Positions 9,247 to 34,004 of a DNA stretch of 40,197 nt are shown here, piece by piece. The DNA comes from a bacterium (GTDB lineage: Bacteria > Zhuqueibacterota > Zhuqueibacteria > Oceanimicrobiales > Oceanimicrobiaceae). Both the position numbers and the translations under genes were made by a program. The stretch is from positions 1 to 40,197 of the forward strand of contig JBHHXN010000028.1 in assembly GCA_046757025.1 (NCBI GenBank). Reading direction: 5' to 3'. Position 1 is the stretch's first letter. Every line of letters begins with the position of its first letter. The notes below the pieces were generated by a model. It saw nothing but the letters and a program-made list of their open reading frames with translations. It was not told the origin of the DNA and ran no database searches.

Positions 9247-9394
9247 AGTGCTTGCGCAAAAAGAAAATACCGTTCTGGAGTCGCAATTATCACACCTCGA
9301 CTTCGCTCGGTGTGAAGCTACCTACTTCATTCTGAATCCCAAAGACATTTCGGGAAAGCATAATAGAATTCCAAGTTGTTTTCGCTCAAGCACT
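9247..9394. mobile_element. MITE of the GTG...CAC TIR family (copy 3) carrying a TCACACCTCGACTTCGCTCGGTGTGA palindrome
   Basis: AGTGCTTGCGCAAAA ... TTTTCGCTCAAGCACT; the GTG...CAC core is flanked by TAA on both sides. Confidence 0.55.
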
Positions 9395-9419
9395 AAGTAC
9401 AATTTTCGAGGAGGTGTTA

Positions 9420-10373: not shown

Positions 10374-10542
10374 GGCGATAACATGGAAATTTCGCATACA
10401 TCGGCGTCGACGGGTGGAAATGTGCGCTCCAGTCCTCGTTAAAAGTCTTTAAAAAAAGATAACTAAAAAACGACGATCGAACTTGTCCACAAACCGTAGC
10501 TACGTATTCAATAATCCATTTTAACCAAAGAGTCGATACTAC

Positions 10543-11988
10543 ATGAAAGCCAAACGCACCAACATCGTCATCAAACCCGATTGCACCCGGGTGTTGTTTC
10601 GCCCTTTCGAATACATCAGTAAAGAGCGCACCATGAAAGTCATCGCGCGCGTGATGTCGCTTTCAGAAAAAGAGGTGAAACGAATTACCGAACAGGTTCT
10701 TTCTGAATTCCACGGCCGTCATCAAAAGTTGTGTGATTTTTTCCTCAAACAGTTCGAGCAAGTGCGCGATTATCTGATCACAGACCAACCACTCAGTGAA
10801 CAGCGCAAACTGCTCATCGGCGCTTATTTCACCCAGGAATACTCGCTGGAATCGGCGGCGCTGTTCAACCCTTCCATGATCTGGCACCCGGACCAATCGA
10901 ATCTGGCCAAAGGCTGTCGGCGATTTATTCTCAGTTTACGCGCCACGGGCGAAGGGCATATTTCGTCCATCACTTTTCGCACGGGCGTGGTGGATGATCA
11001 TAACAAAATTCAGTTAGAACAACCCACGCGCTTTGTGACGCTACCGGAAATTTACACCAATCCGGCTTATGACAAAGCGCTTTTTGAAAAGAAACTCTTA
11101 GAGCTTGGCCTGGCAAACGATTTTGCCGACAGAGTTATGCAGCCGCTTGCCGGCACCTTTACCATTGAGGAACTAAACGAAACCATTCGTTACGCATTGC
11201 TGCAAAAAAGCGAAACGGTTGAGCACAAGGATACCGCCCAGGGTATTCTCTCCCTGGCGCAGTCAAATTATGAAATTTTTTATTCGCCAGATCAGCAGCT
11301 TTCAGAACGCATTATTTTTCCATCCACACCGGCTGAAATCAACGGCATCGAAGACGCGCGATTTGTGGAATTTCATGATGACGATGGCACCACCACTTAC
11401 TATGCCACCTACACAGCCTACGACGGCAAAGTCGTTTTACCACAGCTATTAGAAACCAGAGATTTCCTGCATTTCAAAATCAACACTTTAAATGGGCCCG
11501 AAGTGCACAACAAGGGCATGGGGTTGTTTCCGCGAAAAATCAATGGCTGCTATGCCATGATTTCGCGCCAGGATAATGAAAATATCTATATCATGTTTTC
11601 GGAGCAACTTCATTTCTGGTATTCAAAAAAAATGCTTTTGAAACCGACCTTCCCCTGGGAATTCTTGCAAACCGGCAACTGCGGTTCGCCTATCGAAACC
11701 GAGGCCGGCTGGCTGGTGCTCAGCCACGGGGTGGGCCCCATGCGCAAATATGCCATTGGCGCTTTTTTACTCGACCTGAACGATCCTGCCAGAATAATCG
11801 GTCGATTACAAGAACCCCTGATCAGCCCCAACGAAAATGAGCGAGAGGGCTATGTGCCAAACGTGGTGTATAGCTGCGGCGGCCAAATCCATAACGGCGA
11901 ATTGATCATTCCGTACGCCATGTCGGATTATGCCAGCAGTTTTGCCGTGGTAAATTTAAATGAGCTTTTAGACGAGCTGCTGTCATAA
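10543..11988 (+). CDS. GH130 family protein (long form with N-terminal extension)
   Basis: ESAALFNPS, SLRATGEGHISSI, NGIEDARFV, YYATYTAY, NKGMGLFPRKI, GNCGSPIET and REGYVPNVVYSCG. Confidence 0.88.
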   Translation: MKAKRTNIVIKPDCTRVLFRPFEYISKERTMKVIARVMSLSEKEVKRITEQVLSEFHGRHQKLCDFFLKQFEQVRDYLITDQPLSEQRKLLIGAYFTQEYSLESAALFNPSMIWHPDQSNLAKGCRRFILSLRATGEGHISSITFRTGVVDDHNKIQLEQPTRFVTLPEIYTNPAYDKALFEKKLLELGLANDFADRVMQPLAGTFTIEELNETIRYALLQKSETVEHKDTAQGILSLAQSNYEIFYSPDQQLSERIIFPSTPAEINGIEDARFVEFHDDDGTTTYYATYTAYDGKVVLPQLLETRDFLHFKINTLNGPEVHNKGMGLFPRKINGCYAMISRQDNENIYIMFSEQLHFWYSKKMLLKPTFPWEFLQTGNCGSPIETEAGWLVLSHGVGPMRKYAIGAFLLDLNDPARIIGRLQEPLISPNENEREGYVPNVVYSCGGQIHNGELIIPYAMSDYASSFAVVNLNELLDELLS

Positions 11989-12131
11989 GTTGGCAATTTT
12001 AACTGAAACAGAAAACGGCCGCGGGCATGCTAACAACATCCTTTATACACATCCATGACTCTGTTGATAAAGGCATTTTTCCATCAGTTTTCATGTTGAA
12101 ATTGTCTTTGAATTAATCAACAGAGTTATCC

Positions 12132-15100: not shown

Positions 15101-15284
15101 AATTTTCGATGTGCTCGGCAAAGAGGTCAAATCTCTGCTGCAGGAGTTCCTGCCGGCCGGCCGCTACCGGGAAAGCTGGAATGGCACGAATGCCACCAAT
15201 CAGCCGGCAGCCAGCGGATTGTATTTCTATCAATTGCAAATAGACGAAGTACGGCTCATCAAAAAAATGCTCCTTTTGAGGTAA
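12132..15284 (+). CDS. Secreted multidomain protein: uncharacterised N-terminal putative catalytic domain, two PKD/Ig-like repeats, LamG domain, T9SS/FlgD C-terminal domain
   Basis: Signal peptide; two NxxP..I...C.A.D.DG....W...G......VW.AP...G.Y.I.C.V.D..GG repeats; LVAFYPFNGDAKD...AYSFDGVDD...FKGTLDEIRLYN LamG; QNYPNPFN...SGLYFYQL...KKMLLLR CTD. Confidence 0.8.
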   Translation: MFKHKLFYTSLLTMAFCSVSTLLAQQIPITRIEQMPNLPVPYKMRNWKQVAAGYDSLVFNLGLSGRYLPLVWLNDNSINYPEHQSFGLHTVVGTTFPQSAEAINVLPAVIGATLVGIDKSRQNDYNWVLMCEEFFNKRPQENVYLNHPVTASGGDWWYATMPNIFFYQLYDLYPGTGDFNYQFTSVADRWLEAVQKMGGSSTPWQAPNMNYRGWRLATMTPYQGGVPEPEAAGAIAYLLYHAFVETGQSKYRIGAEWVMEFLEALNSNPSYELQLPYGVYTAARMNAELGSQYDIEKMLNWCFNVGPLRQWGAIVGNWGGYDCSGLIGEVNGVNDYAFIMNTFEQAGALLPLVRYDDRFARAMAKWLLNAANAARLFYTNYLPDSRQDSEDWAHQYDPHSYIAHEALRQSAYGGSPYATGDAVAGGWGATNLALYGSSHVGIFGGILDTTNVTGILQLDLLKTDYFHDDAYASYLFFNPYNEAKDVTIDAGSGVHDLYDAVTNQFLQTSVSGETAITIPADVAVLLVLTPAGGRVTYELHKMLIDGVVVDYRSDLPVANHPPRIKSLAAKKNTILINEAVKIYCTASDIDGNPVTFNWSASGGQIAGDSSAVVWTAPDSAGTYVISCQVDDGNGGAVKDSVLISVVERINSAPVIVRLTASPRKLDLGKTTNLSCTATDADGDSLSYTWTARHGSLNSGDSTAVWNAPLQAGNYPIICTVSDPHGGVAVDSIGVVVRDFSIIQTGELVAFYPFNGDAKDESGFNHHGTVVGALPARDRTGAANRAYSFDGVDDRINISNHDQLNFRDAITINFWMRVGMFYQREAYPISHGNWENRWKISITNQRVRWTVKTDQGIKDLDSETRLVSNRFYNITALFSGSDFEIYIDGELDAFSTWSGLILPTSYDLTIGQALPGNNQYNFKGTLDEIRLYNYALPLREIQNLADLSTSTTTPTTEKKLNLELFQNYPNPFNAQTTIFFQIHKAANVRLKIFDVLGKEVKSLLQEFLPAGRYRESWNGTNATNQPAASGLYFYQLQIDEVRLIKKMLLLR

Positions 15285-15286
15285 AG

Positions 15287-17857
15287 ATGCCAGCACGAAA
15301 CAGATCGGGATTTTTCATTTCTATCTTTATTTTTCTAGCGTTTTTACTGAACGCCTGTGGCAGCAGTCCGCCAAAGACTTCCGCGGATTTGCGCGTCCGT
15401 TTCAAGGGGGATGCGCAAATTGAAGTTGGCGGACCGTATGTCGGCGTCGAAATGCACCACGGCGCGCCCTTGCTCAACCGCATCAGCTTTTTTTACCCGG
15501 TGGCGAACAGCGTGGATTTGAGTACGGATTACTGGCAGCGCCACCGCTCGCGCATCATGGCCCTGGCAGTAAAAATCGGCACGCAGCCGGTGGAATGGCT
15601 TGGGCAGCAGCCGCTTGAATTTCAGCTCACGCCCTATTCCGTACAATTCCATCAAGTGGATGCAGATAAAGCGCTTAAAATCACCTATGAATTCTGTCTC
15701 AACCAACCCGCCCTGATCGGCACTTTTGAGCTGACCAACCGCGGCAGCAGCGCCCGGGAGTTCACTTTTTTCACTCACCTGGAGGGGTCCCTGCGCACCA
15801 GTCACAGCTACAAATTAAAAGATCAGCCCAAGGCAATCCTGGATGGAAAAAAATCGGCAATTTACTTTAACTACGATGGTGAAGAAACCGGTGGGGCGCA
15901 GTTGTTCGTGGCCAACGCCGGCGAACCAGCGGTGGCTGCCAGTTTTACTGTGGACGTTGGCAGCGAGTTCAGTCTGTGGGCGCCATTTAAAAATGCCTTG
16001 CCTTTTGAAGAAATCATCAATCGCGAAAACCGCGCGCGTCCGGTGGCGAGGTTTATCTACAAAAAGAAATTAGCTCCCGGCGAAACCATACGGGTGGTGC
16101 AAATCCTCGGCGCCTGTAAAAAAAACGAAGCCCTGGAAATAGTGTCATCGCTTCGAAAAAACTATGCCGAAGAAGTTCGAGCTTACGAAAATGACGTACT
16201 GAAGCGGGTTTATCAGCAGGGTAAAATCACCACCGGCAACGCGGCGCTGGATCACTCCGCCGCCTGGGCCAGGGCGATCTTAGCAGCCAATGCCCACTAC
16301 CTGGACGGCGAAATCGTGCCCATGCCCTGCCCGGCAGAATACAACTTTTTTTTCACCCATGACGCCCTGGTTACCGATTTAGCCGCGGTGATTTTCGACA
16401 GCGCGCGGGTAAAAAAAGACCTGCTTTATATCGCGGAACACGCCGCTCCCGACAGCGCCATTGCGCACGCTTACTACTGGAAAGACACGCAATTTGTGAT
16501 GGAATTCGCCGGTAAAGACAACTGGAATCATTTCTGGTTTGTGCTGGTTTCGGCCAGCTATTTGCGTCATACAAATGACACAGCTACATTGGAAACGCTC
16601 TTTCCTTTCTTGAAGAAGAGCCTCCAGCAAATCCGCGAAAACATTCAGGATAGTTTGAGCTGGGCGGCCCATCCCGATTGGTGGGATATCGGCAAAAACC
16701 GCGGTCCCAGAGCGTACATGACGATTTTGGCCATTCGCGCCATTCAAGATTACGTTTTCATTTCAACCACTTTAAATAAATACCATCTCTCTTTGCTTGA
16801 GTTGACACAATTAACTGAAAAAATGCGAGAGCGATTGGAGCAGCAATTGTGGGATGCGGAAGAAAATTATCTCACCAGCTACAACGAAAACCTCAAAAAG
16901 GATGAGCATTTTTACTCTGGCTCGCTACTGGCCGCGCATTTCAATGCCATCAACGAGTGGAAAACACGCGCGCTTTTGCAAACGGCTGAAAAAAAACTGC
17001 TGGACAAAAATATCGGAATTTACAACGCCTTTCCCATGGATTTTCACCAGCGCAAGGACGAATATCGCTTCAACGGCAACGAAGCCGGCGATGAATATTT
17101 TTATTTCAACGGCGGAGTCTGGCCGCAGGGAAATGCCTGGTATGCGCTGGGCCTAATTGCTGCTGGTAAAAAAGAGGCCGCTTTTCATTTTATACAAAAA
17201 TGCATGACTCTGCAAGGCGTTATGAACAGTCCCAACGGTCAACCGGCCATGTATGAATATCGCCATTCCAACCAAAGCGACGCCTCCGTTTACGGCAAAA
17301 TTGACAAGCCGCAATTTCTCTGGGCCGCGGGCTGGTACCTGTACAGTGTTTATCATCTTCTGGGAGTGCGTGAAAATGCCTGGAATCTGACATTTGAGCC
17401 TTATTTAATTCCGGGCCAGTCGCGCAGCAATTTTGTAATTTTAGCTGGGGGAAAGAAGCTGACGGTGACCGTGAGTGGCGCCGGCAAAACCATCCAATTC
17501 ATCAAATTTAATGGGCAGCCCGAATCGTCAACTGTGTTGCCGCAGGTCTTCGCTTCTGCTCAAAATGTGCAAATCGAGCTCGGGCAGCCGCAACGGCCTT
17601 TTCTGGCTGCTACCACCTCCATTCTGCAATTTTGTCGTTATCACGACAAAAATAGAAGGTTGACATTGCAGTTAGCCGCATTTCCGGGGTATAAAAATCA
17701 AACCACCATCGTATCACCATTTAAACCGGAAGCCATTCTTTTGAATGATCAAAAATATCATCAGCAGCAAAACGTAAAAAGTGATCATGGAATTTATGAA
17801 TTAAATTTACTATTTTATCATCAAACAACTGCCGATACTTTAATCATCCAATTTTGA
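15287..17857 (+). CDS. Uncharacterised lipoprotein with probable six-hairpin (alpha/alpha)6 glycosidase domain (amylo-alpha-1,6-glucosidase/GH63-like fold)
   Basis: Lipobox LNAC; YNFFFTHD, DWWD, YFNGGVWP, MYEY and QFLWAAG resemble six-hairpin glycosidase motifs. Confidence 0.6.
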   Translation: MPARNRSGFFISIFIFLAFLLNACGSSPPKTSADLRVRFKGDAQIEVGGPYVGVEMHHGAPLLNRISFFYPVANSVDLSTDYWQRHRSRIMALAVKIGTQPVEWLGQQPLEFQLTPYSVQFHQVDADKALKITYEFCLNQPALIGTFELTNRGSSAREFTFFTHLEGSLRTSHSYKLKDQPKAILDGKKSAIYFNYDGEETGGAQLFVANAGEPAVAASFTVDVGSEFSLWAPFKNALPFEEIINRENRARPVARFIYKKKLAPGETIRVVQILGACKKNEALEIVSSLRKNYAEEVRAYENDVLKRVYQQGKITTGNAALDHSAAWARAILAANAHYLDGEIVPMPCPAEYNFFFTHDALVTDLAAVIFDSARVKKDLLYIAEHAAPDSAIAHAYYWKDTQFVMEFAGKDNWNHFWFVLVSASYLRHTNDTATLETLFPFLKKSLQQIRENIQDSLSWAAHPDWWDIGKNRGPRAYMTILAIRAIQDYVFISTTLNKYHLSLLELTQLTEKMRERLEQQLWDAEENYLTSYNENLKKDEHFYSGSLLAAHFNAINEWKTRALLQTAEKKLLDKNIGIYNAFPMDFHQRKDEYRFNGNEAGDEYFYFNGGVWPQGNAWYALGLIAAGKKEAAFHFIQKCMTLQGVMNSPNGQPAMYEYRHSNQSDASVYGKIDKPQFLWAAGWYLYSVYHLLGVRENAWNLTFEPYLIPGQSRSNFVILAGGKKLTVTVSGAGKTIQFIKFNGQPESSTVLPQVFASAQNVQIELGQPQRPFLAATTSILQFCRYHDKNRRLTLQLAAFPGYKNQTTIVSPFKPEAILLNDQKYHQQQNVKSDHGIYELNLLFYHQTTADTLIIQF

Positions 17858-17880
17858 ACTTAGGTACGAAGAAACGGACT

Positions 17881-20340
17881 ATGACAAAAACAATTGATTT
17901 GACCGGTAATTGGGAATTTATGATTGATTGGGAAAGTCCCAACATTTCACTGGCGCCCAGCGATTTGTTCCAGATGGGAAAATGGCTACGCGCTCAGGTG
18001 CCGGGCACGGTGCACACCGATCTGCTGGCAAACGAAAAAATCGCCGACCCGTTTTATCGGGATAACGAGCTCAAAGTCAAATGGGTGGCCGAAGTGGCGT
18101 GGATTTATCACAAAGAATTTCATGTGCCGCCGGAGCTGCTGGATTCGGAGCGCGTGCAGTTGGTGGTGGAAGGACTAGATACGTTTGCGACTATTTACGT
18201 CAATGATCAGAAAATTGCCCAGACGGACAACATGTTTGTGCCCTACCGCTTTGACCTGAAGAAGGTCCTGCTACCCGGCAAAAACGAAATCGAAATCCAG
18301 CTTGACTCGCCCCTGAAGCGCGCGCGCGAGCTGGAAAAAAAGCACGGCAAACCCGCGCTTTCCCATGCCGATTACCGGGTGTATGCCCGAAAAGCGCAAT
18401 ATTCTTTCGGCTGGGATTGGGGCCCGGAGCTGCCCACCGCCGGCATCTGGCGGCCCATCTACATCGAAGCCCACGATGCCATTCGCATCAAAGATGTGTT
18501 TGTGGAAACCCGACTCAACGACGATCTCTCCCGCGCCCATCTGGAGGTGCAATTAGAAACCAAGATTTTTGGCGCTGGCGAAAGTGAATTCACCGCTGTC
18601 GCAAAGATCGGGGGACTGACAAAAGAAGTCACGATTCAAAAAAGTCAGCAGACCATTTCGTTTGAATTGCGCAACCCGCAGCTCTGGTGGCCAGTGGGTT
18701 ACGGTCAACCGCATCTACATCAATTAGAGATGCAGGTTTATGCAGATGGCGCCTTAGCTGACAAACGCACGGTCCATTTTGGCATCCGCAAAATCGAGCT
18801 GGTGCAGGAGCGGGATGCGGCTGGCAAATCTTTTCTATTTAAGATCAACAACCTGCCGATTTTTTGTCGAGGCGCAAACTGGATTCCTGCTGACAGTTTT
18901 ATTCCCCGCATCAGCCCGCAGAAATATCGTCGTCTGGTGGAGGCCGCCAGAGAAGCGAACATGAACATGCTGCGGGTCTGGGGCGGCGGCATTTACGAAC
19001 AAAGCGCGTTTTATGCAGCCTGCGACGAAGCCGGCATGCTGGTATGGCAGGATTTCATGTTTGCCTGCGGCGCGTATCCGAATTACAGCCAATTTCAAGA
19101 AAATGTTAGTCAGGAAATCGAAGCGGCTGTGCGTCGGCTAAGAAACCACCCCTGCATCGTGATCTGGTGCGGCAACAATGAGAACGAATGGATTTGGTAT
19201 CAGGCCACGGGGCAGGCCATCGAAAACATGCCCGGCGCCCCATTGTTTCACAAATTGCTGCCGTCTCTTTGCGGCCAATTGGACCCCACGCGCCCATACT
19301 GGCCGAGCTCTCCGTTTGGCGGCGACGACCCCAACTCCCACACCGAAGGCAACCACCACCAGTGGCAAATCTGGAGTCAGTGGCATGATTTCACCGCAGT
19401 TACCGAGGCCCGCAGCCGCTTCGTCACCGAATTTGGTTTTCAGGCGCCGGCTAATTTAAACACGCTGAAAGCGATCACCGCGCCGGAAGACCGGCACCCG
19501 CAAAGTGAGATCATGGAATTCCACAACAAACAAATCGAGGGACAGGAGCGTCTGTTTCGATTTCTGGCAGGGCACGTTACCCTGCCGACCTCGTTTGAAG
19601 ATTTCATATACAAATGTCAGGTCGTGCAGGGAGAGGCGCTGAAATATTGCATCGAACACTGGCGCCGCCATAAATTCCACACCGCCGGCGCCTTGATCTG
19701 GCAGTTCAACGATTGCTGGCCGGTTTCAAGCTGGTCTCTGATCGATAGCGCTCTCAAACCCAAAGCCGCTTATTATTACACCAAACGCGTGTTTGAACCG
19801 CGCCTAATTTCTATTTTCGAAAAGGCTGACAAAATTGAATTTTATGTAATCAACGACATGGAAGACGCCTTGGCGGCAACCCTGCAAATCTCCACGCTCT
19901 CTTTCACCGGGCAAGTGTTGTTTTCAAAAAATATGGAAGTGCAGGTCGATAAAAACGCCGTCAAATTAGCCGGCCAGTTCAGTGCGGAGGAACTGGCTGT
20001 CAGCGATAAATCTACTCAGTATCTAAAAGTCGAAATGTTTTCCAGCGAAAATTTGCTCTCGGAAAACAGATGGTTTTTCAAACGATTCAAACACCTGCAA
20101 TGGCCTGAAGTCCGCTTTCACCAGCAATTGCTTCATTTGAGCGGCAACGAGTTCGTTTTAAAATTAAATTCTGCCCACTTTGCCAAATCGGTTGCTATCG
20201 AGTCCGAAATGCTCAGTAAAGCAGATGACAACTATTTTGACTTAGACGCAAACACAGAAAAAACCGTGCACTTAACTTTCCAGGAGAGCGCGGTGGCGAA
20301 GAAAGAAGTTTTAACCATTCGCTCATTGCTGAACAGGTAA
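17881..20340 (+). CDS. GH2 beta-mannosidase
   Basis: VPGTVHTDL, GLDTFA, RKAQYSFGWDWGP, GANWIP, NMLRVWGGGIYE, WQDFMFAC, WCGNNE (acid/base), RFVTEFG (nucleophile), WQFNDCWP. Confidence 0.93.
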   Translation: MTKTIDLTGNWEFMIDWESPNISLAPSDLFQMGKWLRAQVPGTVHTDLLANEKIADPFYRDNELKVKWVAEVAWIYHKEFHVPPELLDSERVQLVVEGLDTFATIYVNDQKIAQTDNMFVPYRFDLKKVLLPGKNEIEIQLDSPLKRARELEKKHGKPALSHADYRVYARKAQYSFGWDWGPELPTAGIWRPIYIEAHDAIRIKDVFVETRLNDDLSRAHLEVQLETKIFGAGESEFTAVAKIGGLTKEVTIQKSQQTISFELRNPQLWWPVGYGQPHLHQLEMQVYADGALADKRTVHFGIRKIELVQERDAAGKSFLFKINNLPIFCRGANWIPADSFIPRISPQKYRRLVEAAREANMNMLRVWGGGIYEQSAFYAACDEAGMLVWQDFMFACGAYPNYSQFQENVSQEIEAAVRRLRNHPCIVIWCGNNENEWIWYQATGQAIENMPGAPLFHKLLPSLCGQLDPTRPYWPSSPFGGDDPNSHTEGNHHQWQIWSQWHDFTAVTEARSRFVTEFGFQAPANLNTLKAITAPEDRHPQSEIMEFHNKQIEGQERLFRFLAGHVTLPTSFEDFIYKCQVVQGEALKYCIEHWRRHKFHTAGALIWQFNDCWPVSSWSLIDSALKPKAAYYYTKRVFEPRLISIFEKADKIEFYVINDMEDALAATLQISTLSFTGQVLFSKNMEVQVDKNAVKLAGQFSAEELAVSDKSTQYLKVEMFSSENLLSENRWFFKRFKHLQWPEVRFHQQLLHLSGNEFVLKLNSAHFAKSVAIESEMLSKADDNYFDLDANTEKTVHLTFQESAVAKKEVLTIRSLLNR

Positions 20341-20486
20341 AACTTTCAAAATAGCAAGCAATTGACTCTTTTGGAACTGGTTGATTATTGTTCGCGATTT
20401 ATTTTGGATTTGTTTATTTGAATATTTGGAAATTTTTTAGTCGAATTAAATAACAAGGCTTGACGGTTTTGCATGACCGGGAGCGT

Positions 20487-21587
20487 TTAATGAATGGCTG
20501 CTTCACTGCGGATGTCAAAAAAATGGGCTTTGACCATGTTAAACACTAAATCGGCTTGCTGGCCAATTTTGAGTTGCGACTGTGCATTCACTCTTGCCAC
20601 CAACGGTTGCTTGCCCATGCTAAAATACAGAAAGATTTCATTTCCCATCGGTTCGACCACTTCAACCGGCAATGAAAGGGCAGCCGGCGCTGAAATTTCG
20701 GGGGTATGGCTTGCTTCATAAATATCTTCCGGTCTAATACCGAAGATGATTTCACGATCCAAATACTCTGACAACGCCTTCTCTCGATTTTGTGGAGCCC
20801 GTAATTGCAGGTTGGCGGTTTTAAAAAAGAGGCCGTTGTCTCGGAGTATTTTGCCTTTGAATAAATTCATGGCCGGGCTGCCGATAAAGCCGGCCACAAA
20901 TTTGTTTTTGGGATGATTGTATAAATTCAGCGGTGAATCTATTTGCTGAATGACACCTTCGTTCATCACCACGATGCGGTCTCCCATGGTCATGGCTTCC
21001 ACCTGGTCGTGTGTGACATAAATCATGGTTGTTTTCAACCGATCATGCAGCTTTGAAATTTCCGTGCGCATCTGCACCCGCAGTTTGGCGTCTAAGTTTG
21101 ACAGAGGTTCATCAAACAAAAAGACTTGTGGATGCCGGACAATGGCTCTGCCCACGGCCACTCGCTGCCTTTGACCGCCCGAAAGCGCTTTGGGTTTGCG
21201 ATCTAACAAATTTTGAATACCCAGAATCTCGGCGGCTTCCTGCACGCTACGTTTGATTTCGCATTTGGGCACTTTTCGCAGCTTTAGCCCGAAGGCCATG
21301 TTTTCATAAACCGTCATGTGCGGATAAAGGGCGTAGTTTTGGAACACCATGGCGATATCCCGGTTTTTCGGCGGCACCTGGTTCACCAGTCGCTCCCCGA
21401 TGTAGAGCTCGCCGCTGGAAATTTCTTCCAGCCCGGCAATCATTCGCAGGGTGGTGGATTTGCCGCAGCCGGACGGACCCACCAGCACCACGAACTCCTT
21501 ATCCTCCACTTTCATATTGAAATTATTTACCGCTGCAACCTCTTTCTCAAAATATTTGTACACTTCTTTCAACAAAACATTTGCCAT
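20487..21587 (-). CDS. Sugar ABC transporter ATP-binding protein (MalK/MsmX/UgpC family)
   Basis: Walker A GPSGCGKST, VFQNYALYPHM, LSGGQRQR, FLFDEPLSNLD, VTHDQ, and a C-terminal TOBE region. Confidence 0.95.
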   Translation of the reverse strand: MANVLLKEVYKYFEKEVAAVNNFNMKVEDKEFVVLVGPSGCGKSTTLRMIAGLEEISSGELYIGERLVNQVPPKNRDIAMVFQNYALYPHMTVYENMAFGLKLRKVPKCEIKRSVQEAAEILGIQNLLDRKPKALSGGQRQRVAVGRAIVRHPQVFLFDEPLSNLDAKLRVQMRTEISKLHDRLKTTMIYVTHDQVEAMTMGDRIVVMNEGVIQQIDSPLNLYNHPKNKFVAGFIGSPAMNLFKGKILRDNGLFFKTANLQLRAPQNREKALSEYLDREIIFGIRPEDIYEASHTPEISAPAALSLPVEVVEPMGNEIFLYFSMGKQPLVARVNAQSQLKIGQQADLVFNMVKAHFFDIRSEAAIH

Positions 21588-21891: not shown

Positions 21892-23634
21892 ATGCGAGAC
21901 AACGGAAGTCAAACCGTCATTTGCTCCAGTGCCTTTTCACAAAAAGCCGCTAATAATCGAAACAATCGCCCGCAGGTCTGGAAACTTGCCCGTGAACAAT
22001 TGAGCGCAAAAGGCGAGCTGTTTGTCGTGGCCAACGCGGTAAACGACTCGGTGGACAGCCACGGCGCCACCGAGATCGCTATCAACATCATCCACGATGT
22101 CTATTATTCCAACCCGCAAGCAGACGTGATTATGAGTTTGCAGCAAGCTTTTCAGGACGCCAACACTCTGCTGCATCAAATCTTCAACGGACATCAACCT
22201 GAAAATAAAGTGGCAATAAATTGTGCGGCCGTGGTGCTGACCAGAGACGGAATCTATTATACACAAACTGGCACCAGCGCCGCTTATCACATTTCAAAAA
22301 ACAAAATTGAAAAATTGAACGGCGTTCAAAAGACTGTTCGATCTTCAGACAAAGTAAACTCATCAAATCACAATGGCTTCTGCACCGAAGTACTCAAAGA
22401 CGGCGATGCTCTGGGATTTTACGAGCAAATAAACATCTCGATTCAGCAGAAACGGCCGCTCCGAAACGGCGACCATTTTATGTTGTGCAGCCACAACCTG
22501 GCCAATCTCGATCAAGAGGAAATTAAAGAAATGGTGCTCAAGCGAACGCCACAACAAGCCAGTCGCAAGCTGGTCACCATGGCAGACCATCCTGGCGTAA
22601 AAAATAATCTCATAGTGCAGATCATTCAGGTCAACTCGGCGTCCGAGCCATCCATTCTTGCTAGACTGAACAATTTACGCTTTTTCAAATCGAACTTTTG
22701 GCGCTGGCTTTTGCCGGCATTCGCTGTGCTGATTTTCGTCAACGCGGCTTTGTTGATCACCAAGTACCGTGAGCTTATCAACCCACCCCTTTCTGATAAG
22801 CTCGCAAAACCGGTTGTACAACCCGCGTTCAACCCTGCCCAGCATTCGAATTCGGTGATTGCGGATAAGGTGTCAGACAGTGAATTGTCAGCAACCGCCA
22901 CAAAATCCCGCGGTCAGACTGAATTCACAGCCACCAGCCCTGACAACTCCACCAGAGACCAGAATGAGACCAATTTGTCGATGACCGCACGCCGGTCAGA
23001 TGGCCCGAAATTGAACCAGGCTGTGAGCTATCCTCTGGTAGCGGCCGGCGCGATGCCGGTGGACAAACTCAACATCATTGCAGAAATGGTAATGGGTAAT
23101 TTGAAAACAGAGGAGCTGACCACAATCGACCTGGCGATTTCGCAGGACAAAATGATCTTTTTTAACCGCCAGAAACGGATCAAACTCATCAACCAGACCG
23201 AATATTCAGATTTGAGTTTTCAGATACAAACTAAAAAATTATCCAATTCTACCCAGGGACGTTTTGGAATTATTTTCGGTTACCGGGCTTTAAACCGACG
23301 GCCTTATGAAACTTATTATTTATACGCTGTAAATGGCAGCCAAGTGATCCTGCAAAAATACGCGAACTTCAAAAAACAGCTCATCACGACGATGCCAGTG
23401 AAATTAGATTCCTCCAGCAATGCGCAAACCATTCAGCTCAAAGTCGTGCAATACGGCCCCTATCTCGAGCTCCATGCTAACCAGCAACGGGTGTTTTTCT
23501 GGCAAGCCGATGAAAACATTCGCGGACGTGTGGGCATTTTCGTCGATCCCAACACGCCGGTGGAATTTTCAAAAATAAAAAGTTCCAACTCGCTCTATTT
23601 AAAAAAAATGACCACCAGCATGCGATTAGAATAA
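21892..23634 (+). CDS. Membrane protein: N-terminal degenerate PP2C/PPM phosphatase fold, TM helix, C-terminal beta-sandwich (DUF1080/lectin-like)
   Basis: PP2C-like blocks KGELFVVAN, LQQAFQDAN, GDHFMLCS, PQQASRKLV and KNNLIVQ; TM segment WLLPAFAVLIFVNAALLI; C-terminal GRFGIIFGY...GRVGIFV...VEFSKI. Confidence 0.65.
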   Translation: MRDNGSQTVICSSAFSQKAANNRNNRPQVWKLAREQLSAKGELFVVANAVNDSVDSHGATEIAINIIHDVYYSNPQADVIMSLQQAFQDANTLLHQIFNGHQPENKVAINCAAVVLTRDGIYYTQTGTSAAYHISKNKIEKLNGVQKTVRSSDKVNSSNHNGFCTEVLKDGDALGFYEQINISIQQKRPLRNGDHFMLCSHNLANLDQEEIKEMVLKRTPQQASRKLVTMADHPGVKNNLIVQIIQVNSASEPSILARLNNLRFFKSNFWRWLLPAFAVLIFVNAALLITKYRELINPPLSDKLAKPVVQPAFNPAQHSNSVIADKVSDSELSATATKSRGQTEFTATSPDNSTRDQNETNLSMTARRSDGPKLNQAVSYPLVAAGAMPVDKLNIIAEMVMGNLKTEELTTIDLAISQDKMIFFNRQKRIKLINQTEYSDLSFQIQTKKLSNSTQGRFGIIFGYRALNRRPYETYYLYAVNGSQVILQKYANFKKQLITTMPVKLDSSSNAQTIQLKVVQYGPYLELHANQQRVFFWQADENIRGRVGIFVDPNTPVEFSKIKSSNSLYLKKMTTSMRLE

Positions 23635-26972: not shown

Positions 26973-27068
26973 GGGAATGCATGAGTGCCTGGTGGCCTCC
27001 GCGGTCTTCAAAACCGTTGCGTCCTGAGTCGCCTCAGGATGGGTGGGTTCGATTCCCACACGTTCCCG
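26973..27068 (+). tRNA. selC: tRNA-Sec (anticodon UCA)
   Basis: Acceptor GGGAATGC/ACGTTCCC plus discriminator G; D arm GAG.GCC-TGGT-GGCCTC; anticodon arm GCGGT-CTTCAAA-ACCGT (TCA at 27008-27010); long variable arm CGTCCTGAG-TCGC-CTCAGGATG; T arm GTGGG-TTCGATT-CCCAC. CCA is not encoded. Confidence 0.95.
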
Positions 27069-27145
27069 CTATCTTTTTCAGAGCGTCGATGGTGGTAATA
27101 GCGTAAAATGAACCGCTGGTGGATGTATTTTCAACAGGTGATAAA

Positions 27146-29143
27146 ATGCAAAAATTTATTCTTCGATTACTAACGCTCACAAATCTGGTGTTTGTGGGCG
27201 TTTCTTTTTCTCAAAACCCGGCTTTTAGAAATGATGAAGCAAATGAAATTCTTCTGAAACATTTTCAACGGAAGCACGACCGCTTTTTTCAGCAAAAATT
27301 CGTGAAACCGGCCGCCTTGATTTCAGCTCAGGACAAGTTCGATGTTCACTATTATAAGTTGGATATCGATGTGGATCCAACCACGGAAGTAGTAAAGGGA
27401 TTTGTGGAGATCAAGGCCAGAGCGAAAGTTGACCAGTTCAGCACCGTGGCTCTGGATTTCAGAACGAATTTGGTGGTGGAAGGCGTCAGCCAGGAGGCAG
27501 CGAGTTATCACCACCAGAATGACGTGCTGCAAATTCAGTTGAGCCAGGTTAAGCAAAGCGGGGAAGAATTTGCCATTCGAGTCGATTACCGCGGCCAGCC
27601 AGCCGAAAACAGCTTTGGCTCGTTTGGCTTTGATTATCACCGCGGTGCCCCCATCATCTGGTCGCTGAGCGAACCCTACTTTGCCCGCAACTGGTGGCCG
27701 TGTAAAGATGTGCCCAACGATAAAGCAGACTCGGTGGACGTCATTCTAACGGTGCCGGAAGAGCTCATCGCGGTGTCCAATGGCTCGCTGATCAGTAACA
27801 CCAATAACGGCGACGGCACCCGCACATTTCACTGGCATGAAGGCTACCCTATCACCACTTACCTGGTCTCGCTAGCCATCTCTAACTACGCCACCTACTC
27901 CGACTGGTTCCACTACGGGGTGAACGACAGCATGGAGATTCAATATTATATTTATCCAGAGCATTTCGAAGGAGCCAAAAGCCAACTGAACGACATGTTA
28001 GAAATGATGTCGCTTTTTCACAAAATATTTGGACCGTATCCCTTTTTGAGAGAAAAATACGGTATCGCACAATTTCCCCGCGGTGGCGGTATGGAACATC
28101 AAACCATCACCAGCCAGAGCGGATTCTGGACTGAGCTGACCGTGCACGAGCTGGCGCACCAGTGGTGGGGCGACAAAATCACCAACGCCACCTGGCCGGA
28201 CATCTGGCTGAACGAAGGCTTTGCCTCCTATTCTGAAGCGCTCTATTTCGAACATATCAACGGGAAACCATTTTATCACAAGTACATGCGAAGCATGGAT
28301 TGGGACCACCCTTACGCCATTTTTGTGGATGACACCTCTTCGGTTTGGAGAATATTCGACAGAACGGTCTATCACAAAGGCGCCTGGCTGCTGCACATGC
28401 TGCGGCACGTTGTGGGCGATTCCACGTTTTTCGATATCCTGCTCGCCTATTCCAACGATGTGCGGTTTGCTTATGGCAACGCCACCACCCGCGGCTTTCA
28501 GGACGTTTGTGAATCGGTCTCCGGGCAAAACCTGGACTGGTTTTTCCAGCCCTGGATCTATGAACGGGGGCGGCCAGTTTACCAAGCACAGTGGAACAAA
28601 AGGGTTGAAGGGAATTCGCAAGTATTGAATCTGCAATTGAAACAAATCCAGTACCCAAATGAAGCGTTGTTTCCCATGCCTATCGACATTACCGTGGAAA
28701 CCGCCCGCGGCGACACCATTGTGACCGTCTTCAACGACGCGGCTGAGCAAAATTTTAAAATCACCTTGAACGCAGAACCCCAGAATATCATCATTGACAA
28801 AGACGGCTGGATTTTGAAAAGGGTGGATTCTATTTCCGCGAACGAAGAATCGCCCGTCGTCATCACCGATTTTGTGCTGAAGCAAAATTATCCCAATCCT
28901 TTTAACGGGGAGACCGTCATCGAGTTTAGTCTGCCCAGACGAGAAACAGTTGAGCTGACTCTTTACAACCTCTCCGGGCAAAAAATCCGAACTTTGATTT
29001 CCAAACAATATGAAGCAGGTACCTATTCCATTCCCTGGAACGGATTGAATGATGAAGGTCAAACCGTGGCCAGCGGTTTATATTTTTACCAGATACAAGC
29101 TGGCAATTTTAAGCTGCAAAAAAAGTTGCTTTACATCAAATAA
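27146..29143 (+). CDS. M1 family zinc aminopeptidase with T9SS/FlgD C-terminal domain
   Basis: Signal peptide; GGMEH, HELAH-x18-E (WLNEGFA), YHKGA; QNYPNPFN...SGLYFYQI...KKLLYIK. Confidence 0.93.
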   Translation: MQKFILRLLTLTNLVFVGVSFSQNPAFRNDEANEILLKHFQRKHDRFFQQKFVKPAALISAQDKFDVHYYKLDIDVDPTTEVVKGFVEIKARAKVDQFSTVALDFRTNLVVEGVSQEAASYHHQNDVLQIQLSQVKQSGEEFAIRVDYRGQPAENSFGSFGFDYHRGAPIIWSLSEPYFARNWWPCKDVPNDKADSVDVILTVPEELIAVSNGSLISNTNNGDGTRTFHWHEGYPITTYLVSLAISNYATYSDWFHYGVNDSMEIQYYIYPEHFEGAKSQLNDMLEMMSLFHKIFGPYPFLREKYGIAQFPRGGGMEHQTITSQSGFWTELTVHELAHQWWGDKITNATWPDIWLNEGFASYSEALYFEHINGKPFYHKYMRSMDWDHPYAIFVDDTSSVWRIFDRTVYHKGAWLLHMLRHVVGDSTFFDILLAYSNDVRFAYGNATTRGFQDVCESVSGQNLDWFFQPWIYERGRPVYQAQWNKRVEGNSQVLNLQLKQIQYPNEALFPMPIDITVETARGDTIVTVFNDAAEQNFKITLNAEPQNIIIDKDGWILKRVDSISANEESPVVITDFVLKQNYPNPFNGETVIEFSLPRRETVELTLYNLSGQKIRTLISKQYEAGTYSIPWNGLNDEGQTVASGLYFYQIQAGNFKLQKKLLYIK

Positions 29144-29149
29144 ACGGTG

Positions 29150-29186
29150 AAAAAAAAGCCCCTGACAATTACTTTCCCAGGGGCTT
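29150..29186 (-). terminator. Rho-independent terminator of the DUF3179 gene (between convergent genes)
   Basis: Minus strand AAGCCCCTG-loop-CAGGGGCTTTTTTTT. Confidence 0.7.
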
Positions 29187-29230: not shown

Positions 29231-30229
29231 TTAATTTCCTAATATTTTCGTGTGCGGGTTGGCTAAACTCCAATTATACCAGAAGGTGTCAAAGCCGTGA
29301 AATCGTTCTGGACACGGCTTCTCTCCCGATTCAAATTCGCCATTTTCCGGATTAAACAGGCAGCCGCTGTCCGAGTCCACCCACCCTCCATCTTGTTTTA
29401 CAAAGCCGGCGCCTTCTGTCAAAAATGCCGCAGTGGAATAAAAAATTTCAGATTTGGGCGGTCGATAGAGAAAAAGATGGGTGTCTCCGAGATCAAAACT
29501 TTTCCCGCCGGTAATTTCATGGTGAGGTACCGCGAAACTCTGGCCCTTATAATGAAAAGCGAAAATGGGTTGTTTAGTTTTAAAACGCTTGTCTTTGGCG
29601 CGAGTTCCCCGAAAGCCCTGATCTGAGGTAAAATAACCCATATAAGGATTGTATGGCTCATCCTCTTTGCCGTTGATGGAGAGCACCAGCGTACCGGGAT
29701 GCTTTTTCACCCAGTCTTTCCACTGCATTTTTGCGCCGATGGGCAGCTCTTTTAATTTGTTGCCTTTCAACTTACCGGCGATGGCTTCGCCGCTCATGAT
29801 GGCCCAGTAGGTGTCGGTTTCCCGGTCCTGCATCACCAACGAGCTGTGAATCAAACCGCCCGAAGCCTCAAAATTGATTTTTTGTCCCGCATATTCCCGG
29901 TCGTACACGACGGCCGTATTTGCTAACGGTCACCAAACCGCCGCAAACGCGATTTCTCCAATTTGATCGTTCACCACTTCGTGGCTGTTCAGCAAGTTCA
30001 GGCTGTATGCTCGCGCCTGACCCTCTGCGACCACGCCGATTATCCAGGAATCGTCCGCGATGTCCGCTTTTTGAGCAGAGACAAACTCGGGCTGCGTGAT
30101 GGCGGCGATAGCCCCGCGGCGTAAAAGCTGCTTAAATTCTTTCGGCAGCTCCTTATTTTGTGAAATAGCTAAAGAAGACATCAATATAATAAACAGGGTT
30201 ATGAAAACAATCTTGTTTGTATTGGCCAT
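29231..30229 (-). CDS. DUF3179-family selenoprotein (332 aa, Sec at codon 100)
   Basis: SD AGGAGG and ATG at 30229; signal peptide; ARAYSL..L.SHEVVND...AVW-TGA-PLANTAVVYDR continues in frame into F.ASG.L..S.LVMQDRET.TYW...GEAI.G, W..W...HP.T.VL and FWYNW...NP.T. The TGA (29930-29932) sits at the Cys of the family's CPL motif. Confidence 0.9.
29897..29913 (-). promoter_or_regulatory. Bacterial SECIS-like hairpin
   Basis: mRNA UGA CCGUUAGCAAAUACGG-CC-GUCG-UGUA-CGAC-CGG. The apical loop UGUA has G at position 2 and starts 22 nt after the UGA. Confidence 0.75.
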
Positions 30230-30458
30230 TTGACCTCCTGACTTATTAAAATGTGGACTTCTGCAATATAGGTGTTCAACCTTTAGGTTGCGGCAGGTTG
30301 AAACCTGAACACCCATTTTAGACGTCGTTTTGCAGAATTCATAAAAAATCGAATACAATATTATATCTCTAAAACGATATTATCAAGGATTAAATTCCCG
30401 CCACCGAAATTCAAGATACGGCAACAAATGGGAAAAGGCAAATTCATTGCGCTGCATG

Positions 30459-30530: not shown

Positions 30531-31133
30531 ATGACGGATTCCCAACTGATCGATAAGTTTTTGAACGGCAAAATCAACGCATTTAACACATTAGTCTGGC
30601 GATGGGAAAAAAATCTTTACAATTTTGTTTTACGCTACCTGGGCGATGGCGAAGAAGCCAGGGACATCTGTCAAAAGACCTTCATTCGGGCTTATCAAAA
30701 CTTGCACCGACTGCGCGACACCCGCAAGTTTTCCACCTGGCTTTTTCAAATTGCCGTCAATTTGTGCCGGGATGAGCTGAAAAAACGCCACCGACATCCA
30801 ACGTTTTCATTGGAAAATTTACAGGAAGACCACCGTGGTGCAGAGGCATTCAATCAAAGTATGCACAACGCATCAACAAATCATCCGGATTATGTGGTGC
30901 AAAATCACGATTTGCGGGAATTACTGAATCGCGCGCTGCAAGCCATTCCAGAAGAACAGCGGGTGGTCATCATCATGAAGGAATACCAGGGATTCAAATT
31001 CACTGAAATCGCCGAAATTCTGGAAACCTCGGTGAACACGGCCAAATCGCGCATGTATTATGGTTTGAGCGCTTTGCGCAAAGTTTTTAAGAAATGGAAA
31101 ATAAATGAGGAGATTTTGAGATATGAAGTGTGA
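30531..31133 (+). CDS. ECF (sigma-70 group 4) RNA polymerase sigma factor
   Basis: AFNTLV, DICQKTFIRAY, FSTWLFQIAVNLCRD (region 2); EQR.V......G....EIAEILETSVNTAKSR (region 4). Confidence 0.93.
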   Translation: MTDSQLIDKFLNGKINAFNTLVWRWEKNLYNFVLRYLGDGEEARDICQKTFIRAYQNLHRLRDTRKFSTWLFQIAVNLCRDELKKRHRHPTFSLENLQEDHRGAEAFNQSMHNASTNHPDYVVQNHDLRELLNRALQAIPEEQRVVIIMKEYQGFKFTEIAEILETSVNTAKSRMYYGLSALRKVFKKWKINEEILRYEV

Positions 31134-31836
31134 CCTGAAAAAAACACAACTTTTAGGTTATTTCTATCAAGACATGGAGGCCGATGAAAAACAGCTAGTG
31201 GAAAAACATCTCTCCGGTTGTGCCGCCTGCCAAAAAGAGCTGAAAAAGCTGTCACAGACCAGTCAAATTCTGCAGCACTGGCCGGACGAGGAGTCGAACA
31301 TCAAATACAATTTCGTGCAGGAAAAATCCAGCCAGTTTGAAAGCCTCAAATCCTTCTGGGCGCGAAAAACAACCTGGCGCGGATTTGCCATTGGATTTGC
31401 CGCCGGTATCGCCGCGGTGCTCGTCGTATTTTCGCTTCTCAATTTTGAAGTGAATTACCTCGACGGTCAATTCAGCGCAAAATTTAATTTGTTTTCTAAG
31501 CCCAAACAGGCCGCCAACATCTCCCGGGATCCCCTGTCACAGCCGGTAACGCAGCGGCAATTCGATCTCTGGCAGCAACAATCGCTTGCGCTCATTCAGG
31601 AATTGATTCAGGACACCGAGGAACGGCAACGGCAGGAAGTGAACGCCAGGTTGGTACAATTTGCCCGGGATCTGGACTATCAGCGCCGGCGAGATTTGCA
31701 ATTGGTGGGCGAAGGCCTGGAAGTGTTTCAATTAACCAATGAAAATCGTTTTCGCCACACCCATGAGACATTGCAGGAGCTCATCAAAGTGGCCCGGTTT
31801 GAGAGAGTTCAAACTCGGCCAGAACAAAAAGACTGA
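31123..31836 (+). CDS. Zinc-binding (zf-HC2/ZAS) membrane anti-sigma factor
   Basis: Overlaps the sigma stop; HLSGCAAC (HxxxCxxC); TM segment GFAIGFAAGIAAVLVVFSLL. Confidence 0.85.
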   Translation: MKCDLKKTQLLGYFYQDMEADEKQLVEKHLSGCAACQKELKKLSQTSQILQHWPDEESNIKYNFVQEKSSQFESLKSFWARKTTWRGFAIGFAAGIAAVLVVFSLLNFEVNYLDGQFSAKFNLFSKPKQAANISRDPLSQPVTQRQFDLWQQQSLALIQELIQDTEERQRQEVNARLVQFARDLDYQRRRDLQLVGEGLEVFQLTNENRFRHTHETLQELIKVARFERVQTRPEQKD

Positions 31837-31875
31837 GCCAAATTAACCGTAATTAATTTTTGGAGATAAATCACC

Positions 31876-33078
31876 ATGTCAGCTAAATATTCAATCAAAA
31901 GATGGCAATATTTACTCATCCCGCTCGCGCTTCTATTGATGACGCCCAGCAATTCAACCGCGCAGTCCCAGGGCGCCATCAACTGGGATCGCATGCAGCG
32001 GGATTTGGATATCATGGAAGGCGTGCTGGACAAACTTTTAAATAGTTCGCCTTATGATTTTGAGCTGGCCATGGCAAACGGCAAAACGCTGGGCACTTTT
32101 TTTAAAGGTTACGGCGTGGTTTTCCAGATCAATTATTCCAGCTTCAACTACGCGGCCATTGTAGACGTGAAGACAAGTATTGAGCTCGAGATGCAACAAT
32201 TAAAACAACTGCAGAAACAAATCGAACCATCCGAATTGCGCATCATTGAAGAATCTCAGCTTAACAAACAAAGCTCAAACATGGCGGAAAGGGTAAATAA
32301 CCTCAAAGATCAGCTCACGGAATTTTTGGGAGATTATGCCGACGCCATCGGTCAGTTGCGAGACAGCCATCGCGTGACTGTGCTGGTCAATTTCGGAAAA
32401 AACCGGTCGGTTCTCACTTACCGTTCGCGCCAAAAACCGAAAAAAGAAAAAGCCATTTCCATGCTTGAGGTTACGGTAAAAAAAAGCGATATCGTGGCCT
32501 ATCGTCAGGGCCGCATCAACGAAGCGGCCTTTCGTAAACGCATCGTATTTCGTGAGCGCACGCAAAACGAAAAAATGCGCAAGAACATCGATATCATGGC
32601 CAATATTATGAACACGGCCTTGCACAAAAAATACCACAAAAATTTCAGCTCGGACGGCAAAACCCATGGCATCTACTTAGAGGGTCTGGGAGTGCTTTTC
32701 TTCATGAACGGTAAAATCGACTGGAATAATCGGCGCATCTTGCTCGAATCGTATATTGAAAATTATCAAAAAGGCCATGAAGTACAAATCACTCGCAAAA
32801 AACGCGAGCGGGAGTCTAAAAAGAAATTTCGTGAAACAATCGACGCTTATAAAGACGCGGTGATCGAAGTAGTGGGAAATTACGGCCACACCTTGCGTAC
32901 ACTCAAACCAACAGAAAATGTCATCGTGGCGGTGCATATCGGTGATTACCTGAGTTACAGCGACGATTTTCCCAACCGTTTTATCGTCAAAATCAACAAA
33001 AGCGATCTGGACAAATACAACCGTGGAAAAATTAAATTCGCAAGCTTCAAGAAAAAAGTCGAGTTCATCGAGTATTGA
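31876..33078 (+). CDS. Secreted hypothetical protein made of two tandem homologous domains
   Basis: Signal peptide; internal repeat visible by eye (see findings). Confidence 0.75.
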   Translation: MSAKYSIKRWQYLLIPLALLLMTPSNSTAQSQGAINWDRMQRDLDIMEGVLDKLLNSSPYDFELAMANGKTLGTFFKGYGVVFQINYSSFNYAAIVDVKTSIELEMQQLKQLQKQIEPSELRIIEESQLNKQSSNMAERVNNLKDQLTEFLGDYADAIGQLRDSHRVTVLVNFGKNRSVLTYRSRQKPKKEKAISMLEVTVKKSDIVAYRQGRINEAAFRKRIVFRERTQNEKMRKNIDIMANIMNTALHKKYHKNFSSDGKTHGIYLEGLGVLFFMNGKIDWNNRRILLESYIENYQKGHEVQITRKKRERESKKKFRETIDAYKDAVIEVVGNYGHTLRTLKPTENVIVAVHIGDYLSYSDDFPNRFIVKINKSDLDKYNRGKIKFASFKKKVEFIEY

Positions 33079-33137
33079 GGAAAATTATTAACCAAACCAA
33101 TCGACTCACTGGTAACCATCATTAAGGAGGTATTGAT

Positions 33138-34004
33138 ATGAACAAATTATTCAACATGCCACCTGCGGTTTCTCTCTGCACGCTTTTGCTGGGATTTTTG
33201 TTTATCATCAGTGGCGATGCACACGCTCTGAGCAAATCTCAAAAAGGCTGGCTGGGCGTGAGCATCGAAGAAATGACGCCTTCCATGGTAGATGAATATG
33301 AAATAGGCAACCGCACCGGCCTGCTCATCACCGATGTGGTGCATAACAGCCCCGCGGACGACGCCGGCTTGTGGGAAGACGATGTCATCGTGGAATTCAA
33401 CGGCAAAGCGGTAGCCATCGCAAAAGATTTTTCAAAAAGCGTGCGAGCGCATAAGCCCGGCGCCACGGTTAAACTGAAAATTGTCCGCGATGGCGAAGAG
33501 AAAACTATCGAAGTCACCCTGGGCAAACTCAAATCGCAACGACGGTATTTGCGCCGGATTGATGAAAATGTCTTCTTCATTTCAGACAGGCCACAATTAG
33601 GGATTCGGGTGGAGGAGCTGAATTCCGATCTAGCGCCCTATTTCCAAGTGGAAGAAGGCGATGGCGTTTTGATCTGGGAAGTGTTCGAAGGCAGTCCCGC
33701 TGAAAAGGCTGGCTTGAAAGCCGGTGACGTCATAACCCAACTGGATGAAGAAAAAATTTCCGATGCGGAGGATTTGATCGCAACTCTGGAAGAGTATGAG
33801 GAGGACGACGAAGTGAAAATCAAATACATCCGCAAAGGCCAAGCCGCCGAAGTGGAAGTGGTGCTGAAGGAAGCAGACCCGCAAGACTTTCATTTTAGTT
33901 TGCCACGTATGCCGCGGATTCGAATTAAGGAATTCAAACGGTTCGATGATGCGCCATCACAAATAATCATAAAAAGGCGTAAGCGCCAATCAGCAGTGAT
34001 TTAG
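33138..34004 (+). CDS. Secreted tandem-PDZ-domain protein (no protease domain)
   Basis: SD AAGGAGG; signal peptide; KGWLGVSI...SPADDAGL..DDVI and PQLGIRV...GSPAEKAGLKAGDVI. Confidence 0.88.
   Translation: MNKLFNMPPAVSLCTLLLGFLFIISGDAHALSKSQKGWLGVSIEEMTPSMVDEYEIGNRTGLLITDVVHNSPADDAGLWEDDVIVEFNGKAVAIAKDFSKSVRAHKPGATVKLKIVRDGEEKTIEVTLGKLKSQRRYLRRIDENVFFISDRPQLGIRVEELNSDLAPYFQVEEGDGVLIWEVFEGSPAEKAGLKAGDVITQLDEEKISDAEDLIATLEEYEEDDEVKIKYIRKGQAAEVEVVLKEADPQDFHFSLPRMPRIRIKEFKRFDDAPSQIIIKRRKRQSAVI

Follow-up and report, generated by a model that had tools for sequence, protein, structure and literature searches.

The reverse strand of the window (the whole stretch of DNA analysed, 40,197 nucleotides) carries at 29231..30229 a DUF3179 (PF11376) gene of 332 codons plus a TAA stop, interrupted by one in-frame TGA. 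Translation of the frame from 30229 down to 29231 gives 99 residues, the TGA (29932-29930), 232 residues and the TAA, in the context AVW-TGA-PLANTAVVYDR. The open reading frames recorded separately at 29930..30358 and 29231..29908 both belong to this frame, which confirms the initial annotation's view of a single gene split by one TGA. Its claims of a strong Shine-Dalgarno motif and an intact terminator also hold. An AGGAGG at 30234..30239 (reverse strand) stands 4 nt 5' of the ATG at 30229, and no AGGAGG-like motif precedes either possible start of the downstream piece (GTG 29908, ATG 29833). Behind the gene, at 29150..29186 on the same strand, folding gives an intrinsic-terminator-like hairpin (29186-29156; -18.2 kcal/mol, z -2.8) followed by a U run, which our pattern scan overlooked because of its loop limit of 8. 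The read-through product matches the Pfam DUF3179 profile over positions 3-292 of 292 (195.6 bits against a gathering cut-off of 27; E 1.6e-57, residues 40-327), and the pieces on either side of the TGA match profile positions 2-61 and 74-292. The letters of the TGA are unchanged in contigs of four DNA runs from one hydrothermal vent metagenome study, one of which is possibly the source; no RNA run was among the listed holders of the DNA, which is uninformative on expression.

Tail to tail with this gene lies selC, the tRNA-Sec gene with anticodon TCA, at 26973..27069 on the forward strand, where it had previously been placed, 2.16 kb from the DUF3179 stop codon; the tRNA would be needed in trans and lies outside the DUF3179 transcript. 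On the other side, divergent from the DUF3179 gene, 30531-34004 (forward strand) encodes an ECF sigma factor, a zinc-finger anti-sigma factor, a 400-residue protein with no Pfam match and a PDZ protein. This operon is the only neighbour that recurs near this lineage (the anti-sigma gene is found in 8 of 90 close loci), the other clusters being lineage-specific, and no recurring redox partner was found among the neighbours in the 90 close loci of at least 4.5 kb. A REP-like double hairpin lies upstream of the DUF3179 gene at 30271-30314; seven similar sites occur in the genome and the element is also present on many unrelated contigs of the vent runs, and it was not found upstream of the orthologues. 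Farther away, 4348-21587 is a cluster of mannan-utilisation type, with a sugar ABC transporter, two GH130 phosphorylases, a GH2 mannosidase-like enzyme and a secreted lectin/Ig-domain protein, and 21892-23634 (forward strand) encodes a protein whose N-terminal domain resembles a PP2C-type phosphatase (below the NCBIfam cut-off) and is fused to a membrane-spanning segment and to a C-terminal part with no match.

The in-frame TGA and its hairpin

Codon 100 (29930..29932), the putative selenocysteine of a W-U-P-L-A (UxxA) motif, aligns with the conserved Cys column of DUF3179. A close orthologue (55-68% identity) is present in 16 of 60 relatives, and all 16 have a single TGA at this column, within AVW-TGA-PLAN. 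Among 79 GTDB loci, the 55 close ones have TGA in 53, TGG in one and TCT in one, and the 24 distant ones have Cys in 23, Ser in one and TGA in none. Metagenome loci were retrieved with a pattern that favours Cys; the site is covered in 78 of 80 and reads TGA in 62, Cys in 15 and AAC in one. After pooling the distinct close copies (duplicates removed, matches of at least 200 bits only), 132 sequences were obtained, 115 with TGA, 14 with Cys, three with another codon (TGG, TCT, AAC) and none with TAA or TAG. The homologues thus have TGA or Cys at the site with those three exceptions. The 115 TGA copies span several phyla, and among the names in the titles of close records are candidate division KSB1, Calditrichota, Acidobacteriota and Gammaproteobacteria.

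Gene callers record the frame as split: of the 120 homologues listed from the protein database, 103 have only 196-243 residues (60-69% of the query), and the two of these that were inspected begin at the Val codon within the hairpin described below. This is as would be seen if the TGA were a true stop, leaving either a pseudogene or two proteins of 99 and 225 residues. We regard this explanation as very improbable, since 115 distinct copies from several phyla share this TGA and none has TAA or TAG, fused Cys forms are known (the remaining 17 listed homologues are long, with Cys at the site in 16 and Ser in one), the break lies in the middle of a predicted beta-domain, and the second piece has no ribosome-binding motif. 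A variant genetic code or leaky read-through might instead place Trp or some other residue at the TGA. This has in its favour a close homologue with TGG at the site, but we rate it lower still: TGA terminates other genes of the window, such as the ECF sigma reading frame at 31133, the column in homologues is Cys and not Trp, and a tRNA-Sec and a covarying hairpin are present.

A quick tree built on 140 columns, site 100 being masked, places two pairs of Cys forms inside a Sec clade with support of 95-97, many other forks being unresolved; this suggests changes from Sec to Cys. Two Cys forms (L138, L139), sister to a TGA copy, retain the CGUGU loop of the hairpin and have its outer pair broken, possibly a recent change from Sec to Cys with a decaying SECIS. 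The copy with TGG at the site (L092:5190-5235) has an intact hairpin and no Cys at all, comes from a genome with selA and has a TGA copy as its sister; we take it for a recent change to a natural Trp variant or for an assembly error. The other close copies with neither Cys nor Sec are L097 (TCT), whose genome also has selA, and L140 (AAC).

Downstream of the TGA, at 29899..29915 on the reverse strand, a conserved stem-loop was found by covariation and by constraint on synonymous sites. Counted from the U of UGA, its register pairs positions 19-33, 20-32, 21-31, 22-30 and 23-29 around the loop CGUGU (29909-29905), with a spacing of 20 nt. This copy has the pairs G19-C33, C21-G31, G22-C30 and U23-A29 and a C-A mismatch at 20-32. 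In the covariation set of 69 TGA-bearing sequences (68 distinct, from the close and distant subfamilies), pair 20-32 is unpaired in 33 of 68 copies, this one included. The conserved register shows 25 cells with changes on both sides, compared with 4.9 after shuffling; none of 500 shuffles reached it, and it lies above all slid controls. RNAalifold, unprompted, returned its three inner pairs, and no conserved lower stem in the same alignment.

Of 42 four-fold sites in the Sec genes, the third bases of Val107 and Val108, both within the loop, show the strongest constraint (0.77 and 0.73 bits; the next has 1.40). Val108 is encoded by GTG in 98 of 115 Sec copies, compared with 716 of 2261 Val codons elsewhere. 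Of the Sec copies, 113 of 115 have the four core pairs and an NGUNU loop, as do 2 of the 14 Cys copies; the rule was derived from the Sec set and the kin are not independent, so that the figure of 113 is partly circular and is given as a description.

The initial annotation had proposed a hairpin GUCG-UGUA-CGAC at this place and had described it as fitting the bacterial SECIS in spacing and loop G. Its letters are present, but the conserved pairing is that of the CGUGU register and not GUCG/CGAC around UGUA. The GUCG/CGAC register has 3 double-change cells versus 1.9 after shuffling (145 of 500) and was rejected as the conserved element; it may still form in this copy, where, with its loop 22 nt after the UGA, it is the lowest-energy local hairpin (-5.8 kcal/mol). 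Both folding energies of the element come from this register, -10.2 kcal/mol for the UGA plus 37 nt and -5.8 for the hairpin alone (the SECIS limit being -7.5). Folding of a 73-nt region in this copy was no better than that of shuffles (z +0.90), and Rfam gave no match for the SECIS.

We scanned the genome with a similar hairpin filter at stop codons flanked by open frames, and 10 of 6979 TGA, 2 of 6407 TAA and 0 of 2479 TAG sites passed. Four of the 10 TGA sites are the genome's four TGA-bearing DUF3179 genes. The three besides the gene studied here are about half its size (C335:516 on the forward strand, C19:31062 on the reverse and C16:9437 on the forward), with the motifs YUPLV, YUPLV and YUQVI, and their hairpins have the same register. 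Two long Cys-form DUF3179 genes (CxxT) are found on contigs C166 and C3.

We conclude that the product of the gene is almost certainly a single DUF3179 protein of 332 residues, with the UGA read as selenocysteine. That UGA100 is so read through SelB and the CGUGU-loop hairpin is, from these comparisons, a reading in which we have very high confidence.

Selenocysteine machinery and the linkage to selC

A search of the genome for selA, selB and selD, the genes that the selenocysteine reading calls for, found all three over their cut-offs: selA on one contig (C1), and selB with an adjoining selD that itself bears a TGA on another (C73), in addition to selC in the window. A second match to the selD family, also over the cut-off (C344:1415-2341, locus L039), lies in a 755-residue open frame without TGA and is probably a fusion protein. 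The presence of selA discriminates little here, because it is over the cut-off in 56 of the 61 genomes of the group; it is so in 15 of the 16 relatives that bear an orthologue. In a control genome that is 96% complete and has no selA over the cut-off (G011), all 10 DUF3179 matches are free of stops. No selA was found in one 95% complete genome with a TGA orthologue and selC (G046), nor in two genomes with TGA-bearing distant copies (G002, 94% complete; G007, 76% complete).

The tail-to-tail linkage of selC with the orthologue is seen in 7 of 13 orthologue-bearing genomes of the same family; in three the genes are unlinked, and in three contig ends preclude judgement. In genomes of other families the two are linked in none of four. 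An operon of selC and the DUF3179 gene was rejected, the genes being on opposite strands. Their arrangement, tail to tail with a peptidase gene in between, means that they do not form one transcript, and their closeness is a matter of inherited gene order. The intervening gene (27119-29143, forward strand), directly behind selC, encodes an M1 aminopeptidase with a C-terminal secretion sorting domain. Among the linked genomes the genes between selC and the DUF3179 orthologue differ or are absent, which is consistent with insertions beside a tRNA gene.

Protein architecture and proposed function

By eye, the N-terminus has a basic start, a hydrophobic core and A-I-S before Q24; the structural model has a helix at 2-22, and the orthologues have similar N-termini, some with a lipobox-like motif. 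Residues 1-23 (30161..30229, reverse strand) are likely a cleavable signal peptide of an exported product. The initial annotation had likewise proposed a signal peptide here.

AlphaFold2, run with 98 sequences, predicted a mostly beta protein (pLDDT 95.7, pTM 0.90), with strands at 85-90 and 93-100. The C-terminal half is homologous to the N-terminal half (hhalign probability 97.6, E 4.8e-12, 115 columns). Repeat 1, at about residues 50-184 (29678..30082), contains H83, E84 and U100, and repeat 2, at about residues 209-331 (29237..29605), contains an optional pair of cysteines, C290 and C306. From the comparison of alignment rows, the invariant residues of repeat 2 are R215, R256, D314, T315, W317 and W320; the first five of these and Y199 are invariant in 72 of 72 close rows, R256, D314 and T315 being different in distant rows. 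U100 aligns next to the position of R256. Of the 72 close and 26 distant rows, 70 and 25 retain H83, and 71 and 26 retain E84. The three rows of the two sets that have neither Cys nor Sec mostly keep H83, so that loss of H83 and loss of Cys/Sec are not coupled. The first aromatic residue of the motif is Trp in all 72 close rows. At position +3, which had been read as lacking a resolving Cys, Ala indeed occurs in 70 of 72 close rows, and Cys (giving CxxC) in 17 of 26 distant rows. From the strand order in the model, H83/E84 may lie opposite W99/U100 through the hairpin of strands 85-90 and 93-100, and U100 would end strand 93-100, ahead of the part that would match the cluster loops of Rieske proteins.

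The sole cysteines of this protein are C290 and C306, and in 111 of 115 Sec copies there is no other Cys in residues 30-283. In the 113 Sec copies covered at both positions, C290 and C306 are both present in 50, both absent in 63 and never found singly; both are absent in 14 of 14 Cys copies. A role as resolving cysteines was rejected as a general mechanism, because they are missing from those 63 Sec copies and from every Cys copy. The pattern is what an optional structural disulfide of an exported protein would be expected to give.

Searches by sequence and profile found no solved relatives, and Foldseek returned nothing at E <= 0.001. NCBIfam has no model for the protein or four homologues, and the ESM Atlas, queried with a Cys homologue (P0003), returned DUF3179 clusters only. 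No thioredoxin fold occurs among the listed rows of the fold searches, and the model places U100 at the end of a strand. In a wide structural search, rows 1-26 were all of Rieske type, the match lying over residues 69-170 of the model and the best having Z 6.5 and rmsd 2.9 over 91 of 106 residues. Repeat 2 alone matched a Rieske domain with Z 4.8 (rmsd 2.6, 78 residues aligned), below a WD40 match at 5.2. According to the tool, Z below 8 may mean only a common arrangement, and we treat the Rieske-like fold of the repeats as a weak lead.

As a whole, the explanation that we favour, with slightly better than even confidence, is an exported Sec-DUF3179 protein acting as a single-selenol redox enzyme. 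The activity taken by itself, that of a single-selenol redox enzyme outside the cytoplasm, has in our view about an even chance of being correct, judging from the sequences and the model. The initial annotation had likewise called this an exported redox selenoprotein; its selenocysteine is supported, and its redox role is something that we can only infer. In the scheme we propose, SelB would bind the CGUGU-loop hairpin and insert Sec100, a step of which we are nearly certain. Residues 1-23 would carry the protein across the inner membrane and then be cut off, and C290-C306, where present, would be a structural disulfide, both of which we think highly likely. The mature protein would consist of two copies of one beta-rich domain, predicted to be weakly Rieske-like and to have no iron-sulfur ligands. 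At the end of the beta-hairpin, opposite His83/Glu84, Sec100 might be kept as a reactive selenolate, for which the chances seem to us evenly balanced. It would attack an oxidised small molecule or disulfide and be re-reduced by an outside thiol or a partner protein, with no Cys at +3, while the CxxC relatives would resolve internally. Such recycling by an external thiol or a partner is the way in which one-Cys thiol oxidoreductases are re-reduced.

Two other functions can be set beside the redox reading. Sec100 and His83/Glu84, with Cys103 in the CxxC relatives, could bind a soft metal or metalloid (Cu, Hg, As), the protein being a periplasmic chaperone, sensor or detoxifier. The nearly invariant His/Glu and the Cys/Sec are near in sequence and probably in space, six paralogues occur in the genome, four of them with TGA, and the DNA is found in hydrothermal vent metagenomes of one study; all this is in keeping with metal binding. 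Yet 70 of 72 close rows have Ala in place of Cys103 and so lack that ligand, and no recurring metal-transport or resistance gene occurs among the annotated neighbour clusters (eight neighbours annotated), so that we consider this function possible and rather unlikely. Somewhat less likely again is non-redox covalent catalysis, with Sec100-His83-Glu84 as a nucleophile-base-acid triad of a hydrolase or group transferase and the Arg, Asp and aromatic residues of repeat 2 holding an anionic substrate. The invariance of those residues across the close rows and the few homologues with Ser at the site would suit such an enzyme. However, known Sec residues nearly all have redox or metal roles, as stated in parts of PMC13188914, the CxxC found in distant members speaks for disulfide chemistry, and the His-Sec geometry is read from strand order alone. 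The single-selenol redox enzyme remains the function that we prefer.

A broader and more speculative proposal, which we consider doubtful and put forward tentatively, is that a DUF3179 protein consists of two Rieske-derived domains in tandem, from which the iron-sulfur cluster was lost and in which a new His-Glu-Sec active site arose where the domains meet. The UxxA proteins would then be a class of exported selenoenzymes whose reaction, on an anionic small molecule or metalloid, is undescribed; they would be widespread among bacteria of marine sediments and have escaped notice because gene callers split their genes.

Comparison with known systems

The proposed working of the protein resembles that of the 1-Cys peroxiredoxins in one respect, a single reactive chalcogen recycled by an external reductant. 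DUF3179 differs from them in showing no thioredoxin fold among the listed fold matches and no sequence match, and in probably being exported. With the Rieske [2Fe-2S] and NirD-like fold (3dqy, 2qpz, 1vm9, 3gce, 3c0d) the likeness is a weak structural one, predicted residues 69-170 aligning over most of a Rieske ferredoxin. The DUF3179 protein differs by the absence of CxH/CxxH ligand boxes (neither of its cysteines has a His at +2 or +3), by 4-13% identity, by its two repeats and by its likely signal peptide.

The hairpin can be compared with the bacterial SECIS model as given in parts of PMC13188914: a loop of 3-9 nt, G in the first two loop positions, a spacing of 16-37 nt and an upper stem of 4-16 bp. 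Here the loop is CGUGU, the spacing 20 nt and the stem five pairs with one mismatch; shared with the model are the G in the first two loop positions followed by U, the 5-nt loop, the spacing and the short upper stem. The hairpin departs from the model in the mismatch at 20-32 in about half of the copies and in its unconserved lower stem. For KSB1 genomes, selA, selB and selD have been reported, with selC absent from the annotation, in the part of PMC9012183 covered; in contrast, selC was found here.

DUF3179 is itself already listed as a predicted selenoprotein, with the motif UxxC/T, in the parts of PMC9312934 and PMC13188914 covered, both of which cite PMC1976440. The latter names the new families OS_HP1-3 and others, and the name DUF3179 is absent from the parts of it covered. 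In PMC9230427 a DUF3179 protein appears only as a table entry, and two homologues already carry the NCBI name "DUF3179 domain-containing (seleno)protein". The covered parts of PMC9312934 and PMC13188914 assign no function to any listed Sec-DUF3179 member, and our literature search found no paper with a UxxA selenoprotein or a Rieske-like selenoprotein fold, although supplements may list UxxA members.

The present gene is thus neither a new recoding mechanism nor a new selenoprotein family. Its description corrects a systematic annotation error: most entries of the subfamily contain just the C-terminal part, without the putative signal peptide or the active-site residue. For an unstudied selenoprotein family it also offers an anatomy open to testing, in which the fold has two repeats, the site is likely His-Glu-Sec and covariation defines the SECIS. 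The site occurs naturally as Sec, Cys, Ser or Trp, and the Cys orthologues can be expressed without the Sec machinery, so that function is directly testable. With the listed Sec-DUF3179 proteins the gene shares the Pfam family, the Sec at the first Cys of a CPLC-type motif and the SECIS directly behind the UGA. It differs from them by UxxA (Ala103), by Trp as the first aromatic residue and by its own invariant residues of repeat 2, R256, D314 and T315. What we add to the known family is a widespread UxxA subfamily, the internal duplication with its weak Rieske-like match and no cluster ligands, the conserved His83/Glu84 that probably lie beside Sec, the optional, always paired C290-C306 and a family-level tail-to-tail synteny with selC.
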